NCBI GenBank assembly: GCA_030606485.1
Contig: JAUWGH010000004.1
Location: forward strand, 1 to 32,000
Direction of reading: 5' to 3'
Length of the DNA stretch: 32,000 nucleotides
Source: Promethearchaeota archaeon
Lineage (GTDB): Archaea; Asgardarchaeota; Lokiarchaeia; Sigyniarchaeales; SOKP01
In this document: positions 2,049-9,865 of the stretch, in pieces
Layout: the number at the start of each line of letters is the position of its first letter
Numbering within the stretch: the stretch's first letter is position 1
Position numbers and translations under genes: made by a program
Notes under the pieces: generated by a model
The model's input: the letters and a program-made list of their open reading frames with translations, nothing else
Told to the model about the DNA's origin: nothing
Database searches by the model: none

Positions 2049-2711
2049 TTAAGGTATTTTATATTTTAAACTATGCCTATCGGCAATTGTTTGTAATGCT
2101 TCAAAAACGATATTCGATGTTTTTTCTGTTAGAAACTCCCTTGCTTTTTCATCTGTTCTTTCTATTGAAATGGAATGAAGTCCAAAATATGTAGTAAATA
2201 AAATTTTAATTGTTATATTTGGTTTAATACGAATATAAATTTCATAATCTCCAGAACCCATCCCTTGTTTTTCATCAAAAAATAAGTCTTCATTCCTTAT
2301 TTTTTCCCATCCGTAATAAACAATATCTATATCGAGAAGTTCCTTTTTATATTCACTTAATAAAAGTATAGAAGGTAATGGTTCATTTTGTACCTCGGAT
2401 GGAATTGAACTTTTAGGATATTTTAAGCCAAATTTACAAATTTCATTTAAAGAGTCTAAACATTTTTGATAAATTTCATGTTTTTCTCTTTCTTTTTTAT
2501 AATTTTCAAATTGTTTCATTACAAATGGCATGAAAACAGCTGAAATTATAGCTGAAAGTATAAGAAAGTTATCAAAAAAATCCTTAACTTCAAGATATAT
2601 CTCTCGATAAAAAAAGGCAACAAAAATAAAATAAAAATCCAATATCAAGAATGTAGATAACACAAAAAGTAGGATTAATAAAATCAAATACTCCTTATGA
2701 TGCATTTTCAT
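2049..2711 (-). CDS. hypothetical membrane-anchored protein (about 2 N-terminal TM helices plus a soluble domain)
   Basis: 220-aa ORF with hydrophobic segments LILLILLFVLSTFLILDFYFIFVAFF and FLILSAIISAVFMPFVM followed by a charged globular region. Confidence 0.7.
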   Translation of the reverse strand: MKMHHKEYLILLILLFVLSTFLILDFYFIFVAFFYREIYLEVKDFFDNFLILSAIISAVFMPFVMKQFENYKKEREKHEIYQKCLDSLNEICKFGLKYPKSSIPSEVQNEPLPSILLLSEYKKELLDIDIVYYGWEKIRNEDLFFDEKQGMGSGDYEIYIRIKPNITIKILFTTYFGLHSISIERTDEKAREFLTEKTSNIVFEALQTIADRHSLKYKIP

Positions 2712-3001
2712 TTTAAAAAATTTCTATTATTTTTACCTTTTAATGATTGAATTAATTATATAAAAGTTACATCGTTTTAGTCTGTTTCTGTTATCAAAAA
2801 TTTCATATTAAAGACAAATTTTGTCGGAAAGATTTTTCTTCCTGATAAAACATATCTAATTTGTTTTAAAATTATACTAAAATAGTATTAAAAAATTGAA
2901 AAATTCCTACAAAAAATAGTTTAAATGGTTAATTTCACAATGAAAATATCATCATAATATTATCAATTATCTTATCTTTCAAATCCGAAATTCAATAATA
3001 C

Positions 3002-3898
3002 TCATTTGTCGATTTCCTCCATTATTTCATCAATATCTTTATCTTGTAGGAATTTTTTCGCTTCTGTTGGATTATTTATACCGTATTTTCCAAGGATTTC
3101 CTTCACTCTCAATCTCACTGTATCTTCCGACATCTTGTATCTAACCGCAAGAGAACTTGTTTTCAGCCCAGATTTTATATCCTCTAAAAATTTACCAATA
3201 TCAGGTATTTTTATCTTTCTCCTCCTGTTTGATTCAGCAATTATTGTAGCAATTCGTTTTCTATATTTTGGATCTTTAAATTTTTCATCCATTATCTTTT
3301 TCATTGTCTCACTCCCCTTTGCTCTAAGAACCGGGTCTTTATTTCCCCGTATTAATTTATCCCTCATTCTTTTTCGAAATTCCGGATCTTCTTTGCGTAA
3401 CTTTTCTACTTCTTCGCGACCTTTTCGATTAAAATTTATCATCCATTTTCTATACTCAGCATCTTCTTGATATTTCCGTTTTAATGTATCTCTGATTTTC
3501 TTTATAACTTCTTCACTCTGACTTCCGACTCCTCCATCTGTCATATTGTATCCTTTCTCTCTATGTGTTGAATCGTACTCTTTAATCCAATGTTTTTCCT
3601 TTTCATCTAATTCTTCTTGTGAATACGCTACGTCTATCTGTTCCAATTTCCAAACAGATTCATCATACTTTGCTATAGCATTATTTAAACGAGAACCAAA
3701 TATCTTTTTATCAGGTTGTTCTATTCTAAGTCTTTTAACTGCCCTTCCCTCTGTAAGATGCTCAAGCCATCTTTTTCTTATTGGTTTTACCGTTTCACCA
3801 ATATATACCTTTCTGGTAAAGGTATTAGTTGCTAAATAAATGTATCCGAAAGGTTTTTTTGTAGAATTTTGGTTGTTCACACAATTTTTTTTACACAT
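3002..3898 (-). CDS. GIY-YIG family endonuclease (homing-endonuclease-like) with NUMOD3-like helical repeats and a C-terminal HTH-like domain
   Basis: GYIY(18-21)...YIG(32-34), R43, H47, E101 and GYN(116-118) match the GIY-YIG core. The middle has SEEVIKKIRDTLK and DAEYRK/DPEFRK/DPVLRAK/DPKYRK repeats. SD-like GAGGTG lies upstream. Confidence 0.9.
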   Translation of the reverse strand: MCKKNCVNNQNSTKKPFGYIYLATNTFTRKVYIGETVKPIRKRWLEHLTEGRAVKRLRIEQPDKKIFGSRLNNAIAKYDESVWKLEQIDVAYSQEELDEKEKHWIKEYDSTHREKGYNMTDGGVGSQSEEVIKKIRDTLKRKYQEDAEYRKWMINFNRKGREEVEKLRKEDPEFRKRMRDKLIRGNKDPVLRAKGSETMKKIMDEKFKDPKYRKRIATIIAESNRRRKIKIPDIGKFLEDIKSGLKTSSLAVRYKMSEDTVRLRVKEILGKYGINNPTEAKKFLQDKDIDEIMEEIDK

Positions 3899-3905
3899 TT
3901 TTTTG

Positions 3906-4167
3906 CATACACCTCACATTGTTTTAATTTCATGGGGCGTTGTGAGGTTTTCGACATTTATGATTTTAGGGGGGATTCTTTTTACCCCCCGACCTCGCAA
4001 GAGGGAAAATCATTAAATAGTTCGAAAACTTGCCCCATGTGAGAAATTAAAACAAAAGTAGGGTGTAATATAAGATGTGTAATTAACATTATGAACAACC
4101 CATAACATAAAATAACCTACAGGATAACTATTTTAGCAACATACACCTTACCCGAAGGGTAAAAGTG
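3906..4167 (-). ncRNA. putative structured RNA / 5' leader of the GIY-YIG gene
   Basis: Nested inverted repeats: 3919-3931/4043-4055 (13 bp perfect), 3931-3938/4032-4039 (8 bp), 3947-3954/4022-4029 (8 bp), 3956-3967/4006-4018 (12 bp, one bulge). They close two hairpins, 3969-3990 (G6/C6) and 3993-4004 (CCTC-GCAA-GAGG). Further hairpins at 4086-4108, 4109-4134 and 4148-4162. Function and transcribed strand are inferred. Confidence 0.65.
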
Positions 4168-4435
4168 AAAGAAAAAGCTTTTAAAAAAAATAACAAAACT
4201 TAAAATGACATCTAAAAAGTATTAAGGCGAAAAACTAGACAGAGAACTAAATCCACGATAATTGAAAAAATCCTTATTTTTAAGTATCTATGTTACATGG
4301 TATATGCATCTAATCTATCTATTTATTTTATAATTTATACGACAATAAACAAAAAACAAAGATTTTCTCAAATTTTTTTAAAAATTTTTTATTATAAAAC
4401 CTATCAAATAAATAATTTATAAGAACTGAGAACCG

Positions 4436-4954
4436 ATGAATGAAGAATTAGAAAAATTATCCAAGGAGGAATTGATTAAATATATTGAAGATATCTCTAA
4501 GAACTGGATCTCGATAGATGGTACATGGTTCCAGACGGTGGAAAATGACCTAGGACTTGAAAAAGCCATGGAGCTTAATATTAAACAATGGACAAGATTT
4601 ACGGTTATTGAAGCTAAGAGAATTATGAAAAGATTTAATATTCCTCCAAATGGAGGAATTCCTGCGTTGATTAAAGCTTTAAAATTCAGGGTTTATGCGA
4701 ACATAAACATACAAGAAACCATTGAAATCTCTGAAAATCGCTGTGTATTTCGAATGAACAATTGCCGCGTTCAATATGCAAGGAAACAAAGAGGGTTGCC
4801 TGATTTTCCTTGTAAAGGAGTTGGCTTGGTTGAATATGGTCTATTCGCTAAAACAATAGATCCACGCATAGAAACTAATTGCATTTGTTGTCCGCCAGAT
4901 CCTCATCCGGAAGAATATTTTTGTGCTTGGGAATTTATTCTAAAGGATAAATAA
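4436..4954 (+). CDS. DUF6125-like protein (V4R/HNOB-like small-ligand-binding fold)
   Basis: W-x-x-x-DG-x-WF motif (NWISIDGTWF) and C-terminal Cys pattern CRVQ...FPCK...CICCPPDPHPEEYFCAWEF. Confidence 0.75.
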   Translation: MNEELEKLSKEELIKYIEDISKNWISIDGTWFQTVENDLGLEKAMELNIKQWTRFTVIEAKRIMKRFNIPPNGGIPALIKALKFRVYANINIQETIEISENRCVFRMNNCRVQYARKQRGLPDFPCKGVGLVEYGLFAKTIDPRIETNCICCPPDPHPEEYFCAWEFILKDK

Positions 4955-5115
4955 TTAAATAAAAAAAAGGATATTATAGAGAAAAATTTACAAGAATAAA
5001 CTTAATATTAAACAATGGAAAAGATTTACAGTTATTGAAGCTAAGAGAATTATGAAAAGCTTTAATATTCCTCCAAACGGAGGTATTCCAGCGTTGATTA
5101 AAGGTTTAAAATTCA
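4574..5115 (+). repeat. 115-bp direct repeat (4574-4688 and 5001-5115)
   Basis: Ungapped, 7 mismatches in 115 nt. The second copy is an internal piece of the DUF6125-like gene with no start codon. Confidence 0.95.
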
Positions 5116-5570
5116 ATTTTTATGAAAAACCACGTACTCTAATGCCACTTTTATCCCTAAAAGAACGTTAAAACAGTTTTAATGAAATTGAACTAGGTTT
5201 TAATAAAAATTTGGTCTTAGAAGAGGCGAACCGATGTTTAAGATGTGATTTACGTTTTGAAATCTCACCTGTAGTGTTTCCCCCTCAAAAATGGTTGGAA
5301 TTAACCGATGAGAATATTCAAACTGTGCCTGAACTTGAAGGTGCGATTCAAGTTTTAAATGAGAATCAAGTGATAATCCTCATACAAGGAACCGCTAATT
5401 TACGTTTAACATTGGAAGAACAATTAAAGAGCAATACTAAGGCTTGTTACTTTAATTATTATGAAGACCCTATGTACACAAAAAGGGAGAGTGAATTACT
5501 TCAACAATTTATACAAGAATTTGGGAGATTCCCTGAGGGTAATGAAGATCTTGACGATGATCTATTTTAA
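5001..5570 (+). pseudogene. chimeric remnant: DUF6125 fragment fused in frame to the C-terminus of a GltD/SudA-like flavoprotein with a degenerate GIY-YIG-like tail
   Basis: One frame reads LNIKQW...GLKF-NFYEKPRTLMPLLSLKER*NSFNEIELGF...EEANRCLRCD, with an in-frame TAA at 5169-5171. ER..F.E.ELGF...EA.RCL.C is the typical GltD-family C-terminus. Track ORF 5211..5570 is its 3' part. Confidence 0.7.
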
Positions 5571-5580
5571 ATTTGGCTGA

Positions 5581-5607
5581 ATAATAAAAAAAATAATAAA
5601 AAAAAAA
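5581..5607 (-). terminator. oligo-T tract (two copies of ATAAT-A8/9 on the + strand) downstream of 5612..6235
   Basis: T-rich run on the minus strand just after the stop, between convergent ORFs, as in archaeal intrinsic terminators. Confidence 0.35.
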
Positions 5608-6256: not shown

Positions 6257-6378
6257 TATTTTGTTTTTAAATTAGATTATAATTTTATTTTTAAATTAAA
6301 TACGGATCTAAATATAAAGCTAATCCTTATATTTCATTTATTTGATCAAAAAATTAAAGGAGTGATATATTTTAATAG
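6257..6378 (-). promoter_or_regulatory. duplicated promoter-like segment, copy 1
   Basis: 23-nt block 6257-6279 is identical to 9746-9768. 74-nt block 6305-6378 matches 9792-9865 with 4 mismatches. TATA-like TTTATAT on the minus strand. Confidence 0.75.
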
Positions 6379-6537: not shown

Positions 6538-7539
6538 CTAAATATAGTCTAAAGTTATTACTACATTTCCCTTTTTATGCCCTTTATCGACATAGCTATG
6601 AGCCTCGACAATTTTTTCTAAGGGATAGCGTCTATCTATGACCGATTTAAGCTTCCCCGCCTCAATAAGCTCTTTGAGGAAAATTAAATCTTCTTTTTTT
6701 TCACTTGCTCCCCCACCTATTACTTTTATTGAAGACCAAAGGCCTCGAACAAGATGTGACACCTTCATGACAGCTTCAAGATAGAATCCTTTTTTCTTTA
6801 GCGATCTTTTACAATCTGAAAACGAACTCTTGCCTACCGTGTCAAAAATAATATCATAGATCTCACCGCTTTTGCTAAAATCCTCTTTAGTGTAATCAAT
6901 TACCTTATCGGCTCCCAGAGATTTCACCATTTCTAAATTCGTGGTACTGCATACTCCGGTAACTTCTGCCCCAAAGTGCTTGGCAAGCTGTACCGCAAAA
7001 GTACCATTACTTCCAGAAGCTCCATAGATAAGGACTTTTTGTCCGCTTTGGATATTTCCTTTTCTAAGAAAATGCAATGCTGTAAGCCCCCCAATAGGAA
7101 CGGCGGCGGCCTCCTCATGGGTCATATTGGTCGGTTTTAGCGCTACCACGTTAGCTCCAAACATACCTGTGGATAAAGGCTCTTCAGGTATACATATGTA
7201 CTCGGCATAAGAACCAAAACTCAACCCAGTGGTAGTTCCGAAAATTTGGTCACCTTTCCTAAATAGTTTTACATCTTTGCCTATTGATTCAATTTCCCCG
7301 GCTAACTCCATCCCAAGTATAGTTTTTTTTGGTTTTCTGAAACCCAACATTATTCGCCCGAAGAGCCGAAGCAAGAAAGGGTAATTTTTCATGCCACTTC
7401 GAAGAGCCACGTCCCCTGCTGTTGCTGTTGTCGCGTGTATTTTTACCAGTATTTCATTGTCCTTGGGAGTAGGTTTTTCTACTTCTTTGAGCTGAAGAAC
7501 GTCGGGGGGTCCATATTTTTGACAAACTATTGCTTTCAT
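6538..7539 (-). CDS. MDR-superfamily NAD(P)-dependent oxidoreductase, Zn-independent quinone-reductase-like
   Basis: [12 protein letters not shown] start, ATTATAGD (no catalytic Zn Cys), GMELAGE, GASGSNG nucleotide-binding loop, GHKKGNVVI end. Confidence 0.93.
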
Positions 7540-7671
7540 TTGTGTAATTATTTATCACCATTTTTTAATATTTTTTATTTAATAACACTAATTTTGTCAC
7601 AGTATTAAATAGTTATAGAGACCAATATTTGTTTTTGTAAAACGAAAGAAAAAATGAAATTTGGATAAAAA

Positions 7672-8655
7672 TTAAGATTTTGTACTATTTACCACAGTTA
7701 TTACTATATTTCCCGTTTTCTGCCCTGTTTCGACATATCTATGAGCCTCGGGAATTTGTTCCAACGGATAGCGTCTATCTATGACCGATTTTATCTTCCC
7801 CTCCTCAATAAGCTCTTTGAGGAAAATTAAATCCTCAGTCTTTGGGTTTGAGCTCCCAGCTATTACTTTCATTGAGTTCCTTTGGCCTCGAACAACATGT
7901 GACAGCTTAGGGTTGGCTAAAAGAAGGAGCCCATTTTTCTTAAGCGATCTTTTATAATCTGAAAACGAACTCTTGCCTACTACATCAAATATAACATCAT
8001 AGGTCTCTCCGCTTTTGGTAAAATCCTCTTTAGTGTAATCTATTACTTTCTCGGCTCCCAGAGATTTCATCATTTCTAAACTCGTGGGATTACCTACACC
8101 GATTACTTCTGCCCCATAGTACTGGGCAAGTTGAATCGCAAAAGTACCTATAGTTCCAGAAGCACCACTGATAAGAACTTTTTGACCGCTCTGGATATTT
8201 CCTTTTCTAAGAAAATGCAATGCCTCAAGTCCCCCAATAGGAACGGCGGCGGCTTCTTCATAGGTCATATTGGTCGGTTTTATTGCCAACACCCCCATCT
8301 TACGTTCTTCACGCAGACATACGTACTCGGCATAAGATCCAAAACTCATCCCGGTAGTTCCAAAAACTTGGTCACCTTTCTTAAATAGATTTACATCTTT
8401 ACCGACTGATTCAACTTCCCCGGCTAGTTCCATCCCTAGTATGTTTTTTCTTGGTCTTCTGAAACCAAATCCTAATCGCATGAGGGATCTTAACAAGAAA
8501 GAGAATTTGAGACCTCGAAGTTCACAGTCCCCTGCTGTTACTGTTGTCGCATGTATTCTTATCAGCACTTCATTGTCCTTGGGAGTAGGGTTTTCCACCT
8601 CTTTGAGCTGAAGGACATCCGGTGATCCGTATTTTGTGCATACAATTGCTTTCAT
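7672..8655 (-). CDS. MDR-superfamily NAD(P)-dependent oxidoreductase, Zn-independent quinone-reductase-like
   Basis: [26 protein letters not shown] overlap with the upstream paralog at 8652-8655. Confidence 0.93.
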
Positions 8656-9584
8656 AAGTATTCCGCCACAATTATTACCACATTTCCCTTTTTGTGCCCT
8701 TTTTCAACGTACTTATGAGCCTCGGCAATCTGTTCCAACGGATAGCGTCTATCTATGACCGATTTTATCTTTCCCGCCTCAATAAGCTCTTTGAGGAAGA
8801 TTAGATCTTCAGTCTTTACGTCGCCTCCGCCTCCGGAATCCCTTAAAACGTTAAGATAGATTCCTGTCTTCTTTAGAGACTTTTTACCTCGTGAAGACGA
8901 AATCTTGCCTACAGCGTCAAAGATAACATCATATGTCTCACCGCTTTGGGTAAAATCCTCTTGAGTGTAATCAATTACCTTATCGGCTCCTATAGATCTC
9001 ACCATTTCTAAATTAGTTGTACTGCAAACCCCGGTGACCTCTGCCCCGAATGATTTGGCAAGTTGTACCGCATAGGTACCTACACTTCCAGAAGCGCCAT
9101 AGATCAGAACTTTTTGTCCACTCTGGATATTTGCCTTTCTAAGAGTACACAATGCTGTAATTCCCCCAGAAGCAACACCAGCAGCGGCTTCTTCAAAGGT
9201 CATATTGGTCGGTTTTAGTGCCAGCATCCCGTCTTCAGGCAGACATTTGTACTCGGCATAACCACCAAAATCCGAGAAAAAGGTAGATGCAAAAACTTGG
9301 TCACCTTTCTTGAACAGCTTTACATCTTTGCCTACTGATTCAATTTCCCCAGCTAGCTCCATCCCTAGTATAGCTCTCTTTGGTTTTCTAAGACCTAAAT
9401 ATATTCGCGCGAAGATCCATTGCCAGCGAGGAACATCGAAACTTCGCATTCTCACGTCCCCTGCTGTTACTGTTGTCGCATATACTTTTACCAGTACTTC
9501 ATTGTCCTTGGGAGTAGACTTTTCTACCTCTTTGAGCTGAAGAACATCCGGTGGTCCGTATTTTGTATATACAATCGCTTTCAT
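8652..9584 (-). CDS. MDR-superfamily NAD(P)-dependent oxidoreductase, Zn-independent quinone-reductase-like
   Basis: [33 protein letters not shown]. Confidence 0.93.
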
Positions 9585-9745: not shown

Positions 9746-9865
9746 TATTTTGTTTTTAAATTAGATTAGAATTTGTTTAAAAGAGAATATAGATCTATAT
9801 ATAAAACTAATCCTTATATTTTATTTATTTGATCAAAGAATTAAAGGAGTGATATATTTTAATAG
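9746..9865 (-). promoter_or_regulatory. duplicated promoter-like segment, copy 2
   Basis: Direct repeat of 6257-6378. TATA-like TTTTATATA on the minus strand about 65 nt upstream of the ATG at 9733. Confidence 0.75.

Follow-up and report, generated by a model that had tools for sequence, protein, structure and literature searches.

The insertion sequences IS200 and IS10 limit their own DNA-cutting enzyme, IS200 with a stem-loop in the tnpA leader and the art200 antisense RNA and IS10 with the RNA-IN/RNA-OUT pair. The means used are a 5′ inverted repeat that occludes the ribosome-binding site (RBS), a hairpin-shaped cis-antisense RNA across the translation start, or both. It has also been reported that RBS-sequestering hairpins regulate I-TevI, I-TevII, I-TevIII and segB of phage T4 and mobE of Aeh1 (PMC2988022). 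In addition, of 16 free-standing endonuclease genes from metagenomes, 15 were preceded by a hairpin, and such hairpins persisted after the endonuclease had been lost (Dassa et al. 2009, PMC2677866).

We analyzed a stretch of 32,000 nt (hereafter the window) from a Promethearchaeota archaeon, positions 1 to 32,000 of contig JAUWGH010000004.1 in assembly GCA_030606485.1, in which a branched hairpin lies directly upstream of a nuclease gene. To our knowledge, cis-regulatory RNA structures are nearly undescribed in Asgard archaea, and we know of no account of how archaeal free-standing homing endonucleases are restrained. The element described here is a covariation-supported RNA or DNA motif with a defined anatomy, for which a covariance model has been made and which is directly testable.

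The nuclease cassette and the distribution of the element

The nuclease gene occupies 3002..3898 on the minus strand and encodes a free-standing GIY-YIG homing-endonuclease-like protein of 298 aa (PF01541, E = 2.1e-07, with a score of 31.6 bits where the cut-off is 22.6). Homologs were found in metagenome-assembled genomes (MAGs) of Promethearchaeota and Hodarchaeota, and their distribution is patchy, with 34 of the 135 genomes of the family carrying one. The SSU rRNA marks the genome of the window as archaeal, and the names attached to these homologs place it with Asgard archaea of the Lokiarchaeia type. In a genome of the same genus (G001), the neighboring DUF6125 gene is present, the nuclease and the structured element are absent, and homology to the window stops at position 4315. 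The loci L012 and L013 carry both the element and the nuclease, and their similarity to the window ends just past the nuclease stop codon, with unrelated DNA downstream of approximately 2940. These two boundaries therefore delimit a cassette of roughly 2990-4314, and the membrane-protein gene downstream of the nuclease thus lies outside it. A four-part module of structured RNA, nuclease, membrane protein and HTH-only paralogue was considered but is not supported, given the unrelated downstream DNA in L012 and L013 and the other contexts in which L016 and the clade 2 copies are sited. A group I intron or intein context was rejected as well, as intron RNA was unmatched and the similarity between alleles stops right after the stop codon.

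The upstream non-coding part of the cassette contains a second, small hairpin at 4147..4164 (UUACCC-loop-GGGUAA, or UUACCC-UUCG-GGUAA as read on the minus strand); its stem shows a compensatory change in L013 (AACA/UGUU), and the hairpin is retained in L016. Directly beyond the cassette, a 42-nt AT-rich block at 4315-4356 is 92-93% conserved in G001, where it stands next to DUF6125 without a nuclease, and in L016, where it stands next to the nuclease without DUF6125. This block may be flanking DNA that was transported with the cassette. Orphan ORFs or fragments homologous only to the last ~60 aa of the GIY-YIG protein were observed at 1647-1883 on the minus strand and in genome G000 (C5:5050-5238); identity to this HTH-like tail of the protein is 46-54%, and a 72-nt repeat (1641-1712 and 2996-3067) is common to the ORFs at their 3′ ends. 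A second GIY-YIG paralogue, 33% identical, is present at G000 C6:12484-13410 within an open frame of 824 aa that has a long Lys/Glu-rich N-terminal extension, and many homologs in the family lie in frames of 600-800 aa. Elsewhere in the window, approximately 615 nt at 4969-5583 are missing from G001; this segment holds an ORF (5211-5570) and a 124-nt partial duplicate of DUF6125 (5001-5124, 92% identical to 4574-4697). A tandem array of three zinc-type alcohol dehydrogenase/MDR paralogues, with a DNA identity of about 80-86%, occupies 6538-9584 and is bracketed by a duplicated promoter-like segment of 90 nt (6289-6378 and 9776-9865, 89% identical).

Copies of the element were gathered from contigs encoding nuclease homologs and by a core-pattern scan of public collections, and two covariance models were used to place the element. 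In this way, the element was located ahead of GIY-YIG homing-endonuclease genes in Lokiarchaeia of marine sediments and cold seeps, on eleven different contigs. The nuclease-linked copies are those of the window, L012, L013, L014 (partial, as the contig shows only the 3′ half of the element), L015, L016, L024 (the same as L028), L026, L027, L063, L064 and L065. In all ten nuclease-linked copies that show the whole element, it ends 9-11 nt before the start codon; in the window, the core rod ends 9 nt before the ATG of the ORF at 3002-3898(-), which agrees with the position just upstream of the nuclease start given in the preliminary description of this DNA. Two relic loci lack the nuclease ORF. 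In the first (L022, identical to L023, from MAG Loki_b32), the first few codons remain and the ATG has become GTG, while in the second (L025) the deletion extends into the 3′ outer arm. In L065, a degenerate rod stands beside an intact nuclease ORF. Both relic rods (L022:1501-1675 and L025:3286-3439) adjoin a dual-specificity phosphatase (PTP) gene, and the nuclease homologs L017 and L018, which have no rod, are also located beside a PTP gene, in the opposite orientation; the region upstream of PTP may be a recurrent insertion site.

The element is rare. It is carried by 2 of the 151 species genomes of the order, and a search for the rod next to 32 other GIY-YIG homolog loci gave no match. Closely related GIY-YIG genes without it include L017, L018, L031 and those at 28 more loci, and the upstream regions of L017 and L018 folded no better than shuffled sequences. 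The element is restricted to one nuclease subfamily. Its own genome (3.75 Mb in 13 contigs, 29% GC) contains one copy, even when searched with a word size of 7, and G069 likewise contains one. No DNA relatives were found in 60 related genomes, where the matches were low-complexity noise only, and the core pattern was unmatched in viral contigs. DNA matching the stretch occurs in cold-seep and marine-sediment metagenomes, and no run recorded as RNA was listed among those that contain it. A segment of 37 nt (3893-3929), which spans the start codon and the outer arm, was found in two of the runs (X2 and X3) at higher depth and with unrelated flanks, and there may be further variants of the element in those cold-seep samples. 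A scar of a MITE or insertion sequence, which the preliminary description had named as the finding that would reclassify the structure, is excluded by the single copy of the element, by the lack of DNA relatives in the 60 genomes and by the lack of a match in Rfam; a MITE or an IS terminal inverted repeat would require multiple dispersed copies, and there is one in 3.75 Mb.

Fold, covariation and conservation

The preliminary description had claimed a rod with a three-way junction at 3908-4067, and RNAfold recovered this structure on both strands. The minimum free energy (MFE) of 3908-4067 was -67.1 kcal/mol on the plus strand and -62.8 on the minus strand, with z scores of -8.26 and -8.43, respectively (about -8.3 on both), and none of 200 dinucleotide shuffles matched either value. 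The core rod, which is read here on the minus strand, consists of stacked helices separated by defined bulges, namely a helix of 13 bp, a GGGGC helix of 7-8 bp, a GUUUUCGA helix of 8 bp and a helix of 12-13 bp with an internal mismatch, and an imperfect outer helix closes its base. Two hairpins complete the apical junction, both of them predicted on either strand. The first, a G6/C6 hairpin at 3969..3990, is replaced by GGC-UGUC-GCC in clade 2 and is partly broken in L013. The second, CCTC-GCAA-GAGG at 3993..4004, has on the plus strand the loop GCAA, or GUAA in L016, and clade 2 has a longer CCUU..AAGG hairpin in its place. The segment had been described as far more GC-rich than its flanks; enrichment is present but modest, at 0.36-0.37 against ~0.29 for the genome. 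Searches with Rfam release 15 (4227 models) gave nothing over the whole window at gathering thresholds and nothing within 3871-4100 at E values up to 10. Membership in a curated RNA family was therefore dropped for want of covariance-model matches at either level, in agreement with the earlier statement that no known family could be recognized.

The earlier limits hold for the core, but the structure does not end there, since three more helices extend it to 3871-4100. This extended hairpin of ~230 nt is again read on the minus strand. When 235 nt were folded, the MFE was -85.9 kcal/mol (z = -10.05) for the sense, or minus, strand and -90.4 (z = -10.41) for the antisense strand; control windows of equal length had a mean MFE of -34.6 and a minimum of -61.8, against the -85.9 of the element. 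The innermost of the outer helices pairs the start codon and codons 2-3 (AUGUGUAA, 3891..3898 on the minus strand) with 4075-4082 (UUACACAU). The middle one, seen when the element is folded with its flanks, joins 3884-3886 to 4085-4087, and in the outermost one codons 7-10 of the nuclease ORF (3871..3881) pair with 4090-4100. The extended architecture is common to L013, L015, L016, L024, L026, L027, L063 and L064.

Comparison of the copies revealed that the pairing is preserved while the sequence changes. Across 12 copies, 18 of the 49 pairs of the rod have changed on both sides with pairing kept, which none of 500 shuffles equaled, and the covariation score was 0.275 compared with at most 0.114 in controls in which the partner strand was slid. 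Analyses of nine and of five sequences agreed with the result for 12 copies. Whole helices have been replaced between clades; for example, GUUUUCGA/UCGAAAAC has become AUAAUCGA/UCGAUUAU in L016, and in clade 2 the same helix reads AGAGGG-UGUCC/GGACACCCUCU. The compensatory pairs, together with conservation above that of the adjacent protein, bear out the earlier suggestion of a selected RNA or single-stranded DNA fold.

The conservation of the element exceeds that of the gene it precedes. In L016, the apical domain is 93% identical to that of the window, compared with 42% for the protein, and among the clade 1 copies the apical junction hardly varies, a constancy that extends in part across clades. 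In L015, identity to the window is 100% for the rod, 95% for the first 60 nt of the ORF and 48-75% for the nuclease body, and the downstream flank of this locus (2100-3060) is 97-100% identical to the window and thus provides a near-identical background. The divergent stretch corresponds to 3061-3840 of the window and L015:320-1080, and it is enclosed by the conserved 5′ rod and the conserved last ~60 nt of the ORF, as though nuclease bodies had been swapped like cassettes between ends that stay conserved. In the DNA contigs of four runs, no well-supported variant at 3815-4083 appeared among the differences listed, beyond which there were 442 more, and this is a weak hint.

The most conserved block is CCUAAAA-N-CAUAAAUG at 3955..3970 on the minus strand, which forms the 3′ arm of the helix under the junction. 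It is invariant in all nine aligned copies, and this helix shows one covarying pair only. The block lies 56 nt before the ATG and is A-rich and TATA-like, and it is therefore a candidate internal promoter. A promoter consensus could not be derived from the upstream regions of the 15 tRNAs that were called, as these regions are too AT-rich.

Two further features were examined and rejected. A switch-like alternative in which the internal loop ACCUCACA would pair with UGUGAGGU, in the arm that holds the Shine-Dalgarno-like motif, is not conserved; all 8 bp can form in the window, L013 and L015, but the pairing has been lost from L016 and is weak in clade 2. An upstream AUG (CCAUGAAA), as a true start or an upstream ORF, is not conserved either. 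Its frame is open and in register with the ORF in L026, L027, L063 and L064, whereas a stop interrupts it in L024 and in clade 1 the register differs. Gene callers sometimes place ORF starts inside the hairpin, which annotators should bear in mind. At L063:167 and L064:2501 (proteins P0009 and P0011), the called nuclease start is the AUG inside the 3′ arm of the rod (MKITN...), and it adds 11-20 spurious-looking residues in a frame that is closed in L024 and shifted in clade 1.

Pairing of the translation start and its interpretation

The base of the hairpin coincides with the translation-initiation region of the nuclease. A Shine-Dalgarno (SD)-like GAGGUG lies at 3910..3915 on the minus strand, in the 3′ arm of the basal rod helix and 11 nt before the ATG. 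The genome uses SD sequences, as 4-mers resembling SD are strongly enriched before ORF starts with a peak at -16 to -10. The GAGGUG motif is retained in 9 of the 10 nuclease-linked copies sequenced through the start codon; it is weakened to AAGGUC in the degenerate L065 and appears as a degenerate GAGAUG in the relic L022. In the window, the mean predicted probability of being unpaired was 0.18 for the motif and 0.04 for the AUG. Among the nine well-folded nuclease-linked copies, these predicted probabilities never exceeded 0.34 for the motif and 0.36 for the start codon, and both limits were reached by just 17 of 109 control genes from the same genome, for which the means were 0.44 and 0.42.

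The outer helices also bear on the coding sequence. Across clades, the ORF begins with Met-Cys (AUGUGU) and a CACAU motif is kept upstream; pairing between the two in the outer helices explains this start, and the helices also explain the unusual nucleotide conservation of the first codons. The early-codon sequences differ by clade, each being complementary to its own 5′ flank. When heads and tails were swapped between copies, native and same-clade combinations mostly added -15 to -23 kcal/mol (range -11.9 to -23.5), while cross-clade chimeras mostly added -4 to -12 kcal/mol, with the L063 and L013 heads as exceptions.

Because the hairpin encloses the SD-like motif, the ATG and the first codons, we place it in the class of translation-masking leaders of selfish nuclease genes. 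Three properties of such leaders, of the kind known from I-TevI and segB of T4 and mobE of Aeh1, were found here. First, the element occupies an upstream position at a fixed distance. Second, the SD and the start codon are paired within a stem, as judged from the predicted unpaired probabilities. Third, the pairing is upheld by selection, as the compensatory pairs and the swap test illustrate. The reading that we favor, with a probability of roughly 0.55, is that the element acts in cis as an mRNA leader and keeps the translation-initiation region of a selfish GIY-YIG nuclease sequestered. The fold, the covariation, the fixed distance to the start codon, the conservation above that of the protein and the masking of SD and AUG in every well-folded copy are established; transcription of the minus strand, translational repression and the mode of relief are what we infer.

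Under this masking-leader model, the 5′ leader of the nuclease transcript would fold during transcription of the minus strand, and its ~230 nt would form one long branched hairpin. In the three basal helices, the 5′ arm would pair with the SD-like GAGGUG, with the AUG and codons 2-3, and with codons 7-10; with these segments paired, ribosomes would therefore be unable to load. The nuclease, selfish and potentially toxic, would then be made rarely or only under special conditions. Release might take place in three ways: through a transcript beginning inside the 3′ arm, as in phage T4, through a factor binding the highly conserved apical three-way junction, or through rare breathing of the helices. 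For the first of these, the block at 3955-3970 could be an internal promoter giving an open, translatable leader. The relics L022 and L025, which keep the rod after loss of the nuclease, resemble published hairpins in this respect and speak for the masking leader. Against it stand the decayed rod of L065 next to an intact nuclease ORF and the closely related GIY-YIG genes that have no element.

The opposite strand, which folds equally well or better, poses a further difficulty for the masking leader. In all nine copies, the core rod gains 4-20 kcal/mol in stability on the plus strand of the window (for example, -60.5 against -50.5 in L026 and -59.9 against -50.1 in L024), and the extended structure is better on that strand in seven of eight. 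The relic L022 gave -53.1 on the plus strand against -33.4 on the minus strand, with 7 G.U pairs. Wobble pairs show no preference for the sense strand either, which again counts against a sense leader. In the sense reading there are 20 G.U cells at 8 positions and 25 A.C cells at 16 positions, approximately 8 of the A.C cells (2 positions) being a register artefact, and among intact copies, with the relics and the degenerate L065 set aside, roughly 6 G.U events stand against 8 A.C events. The wobble test was thus rejected as a means of deciding the strand, since it becomes symmetric after removal of register artefacts and relics. The strand had been called ambiguous in the preliminary description, and it is still so after the energy and wobble tests; therefore, an antisense RNA, a dual module and a DNA palindrome stand as rivals.

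In the first of these, a functional RNA would be transcribed divergently from the plus strand, starting within or next to the first nuclease codons, and would carry in its 5′ arm the antisense of the SD and the start region. Such an RNA would be a cis-antisense repressor similar to RNA-OUT of IS10 or to type I antitoxins, acting alone or with a sense leader. The greater stability of the core rod on the plus strand in all nine copies is in line with this, and so are the junction loops, as the GNRA sequences GCAA and GUAA and the tandem G-A mismatches of the clade 2 internal loop read correctly on that strand only. In addition, the rod persists and folds on the plus strand where the nuclease has been lost (L022 and L025), although a C-to-T mutational bias on one strand would imitate the signal of the relics, and T-rich, TATA-like runs in the first codons lie upstream of the rod in this direction. 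However, the wobble asymmetry vanishes without the relics and L065, the outer helices are richer in G.U on the sense strand (7 against 1 in L016 and 6 against 2 in L024), and no oligo-T terminator follows the rod on the plus strand. We consider an antisense RNA unlikely.

A hairpin of 30-40 nt would suffice to cover an RBS, and masking alone leaves the size, the branch and the near-invariant apex of the element unexplained. A more speculative reading, which we hold to be rather improbable, is that the near-invariant junction senses or binds a partner, which might be the nuclease, a host protein or a small molecule, and would open the basal helices on demand, possibly together with an antisense transcript from the same palindrome. 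A riboswitch or protein-binding sensor leader would join a conserved aptamer-like core to an expression platform with alternative pairings; the junction might be such a core, while the alternative pairing of the internal loop seen in the window is lost in L016 and weak in clade 2. If so, the element would represent a new class of structured riboregulator, the first for a mobile nuclease gene in Asgard archaea.

The palindrome could instead act as DNA, in the form of a cruciform or single-stranded hairpin recognized by the GIY-YIG protein or by host factors. Possible roles at this level are an operator for autorepression, a landmark for recombination or homing, and a cassette boundary for the exchange of nuclease bodies. 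I-TevI binds an operator at its own promoter. Both strands fold nearly equally well, G.U and A.C mismatches are about equally numerous, as expected where both strands must pair, the almost invariant helix under the junction suggests sequence-specific recognition, and in L015 the nuclease body has been exchanged between the conserved 5′ rod and 3′ end. The clade 2 copies L024 and L027 also contain GCGAAGC, which we take to be an unusually stable DNA mini-hairpin. However, homing enzymes of the GIY-YIG family that resemble I-TevI act as monomers on long sites without symmetry, and a role as DNA leaves unexplained why, in every clade, the 3′ arm of the palindrome falls exactly on the SD, the ATG and the first codons. 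On balance, we think it quite improbable that the element acts chiefly in this way. Finally, a non-functional remnant, either a MITE or IS-end scar or a chance palindrome hitch-hiking with the nuclease, would fit the rarity of the element (2 of 151 species genomes of the order) and its decay beside the intact nuclease of L065, but it is hardly credible for a single-copy structure without related repeats in 60 relatives, with compensatory changes in 18 pairs and with conservation above that of the neighboring coding sequence.

Comparison with described hairpins

The element is real, selected and previously uncatalogued, and we would class it best among regulators of a known kind, as a large variant from archaea. 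The systems of IS200 and IS10 differ from it in that their enzymes are bacterial transposases, their hairpins measure 30-70 nt and the elements are multi-copy with terminal repeats, whereas the element described here is single-copy.

The conserved hairpins of the 'fractured gene' loci also precede free-standing GIY-YIG or Vsr-like ORFs, have complementary conserved motifs in their arms and outlast the endonuclease (PMC2677866), as the rod has done in L022 and L025. Unlike the present element, those loci are marine and phage- or bacteria-like and lie between the halves of split-intein genes, and their hairpins, which we compared by their description, are small and carry a T4-type late promoter motif (PMC2677866).

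The phage hairpins are similar to the element in that they lie directly upstream of a selfish endonuclease ORF and hold the Shine-Dalgarno sequence in their stem (PMC2988022). They are thought to silence the nuclease on read-through transcripts, and they have a promoter-like element inside (PMC2988022); an internal promoter in our element is a guess. In contrast to these short, simple stem-loops, the element is ~230 nt long and branched, with a near-invariant three-way junction; its pairing takes in the AUG and about 10 codons as well, and it resides in an Asgard archaeal chromosome. If the masking-leader reading is true, it is an unusually large archaeal variant of the hairpins of T4 homing endonucleases and IS200, which suggests that archaea, like phages and bacterial insertion sequences, have come to mask the translation start of a selfish nuclease.
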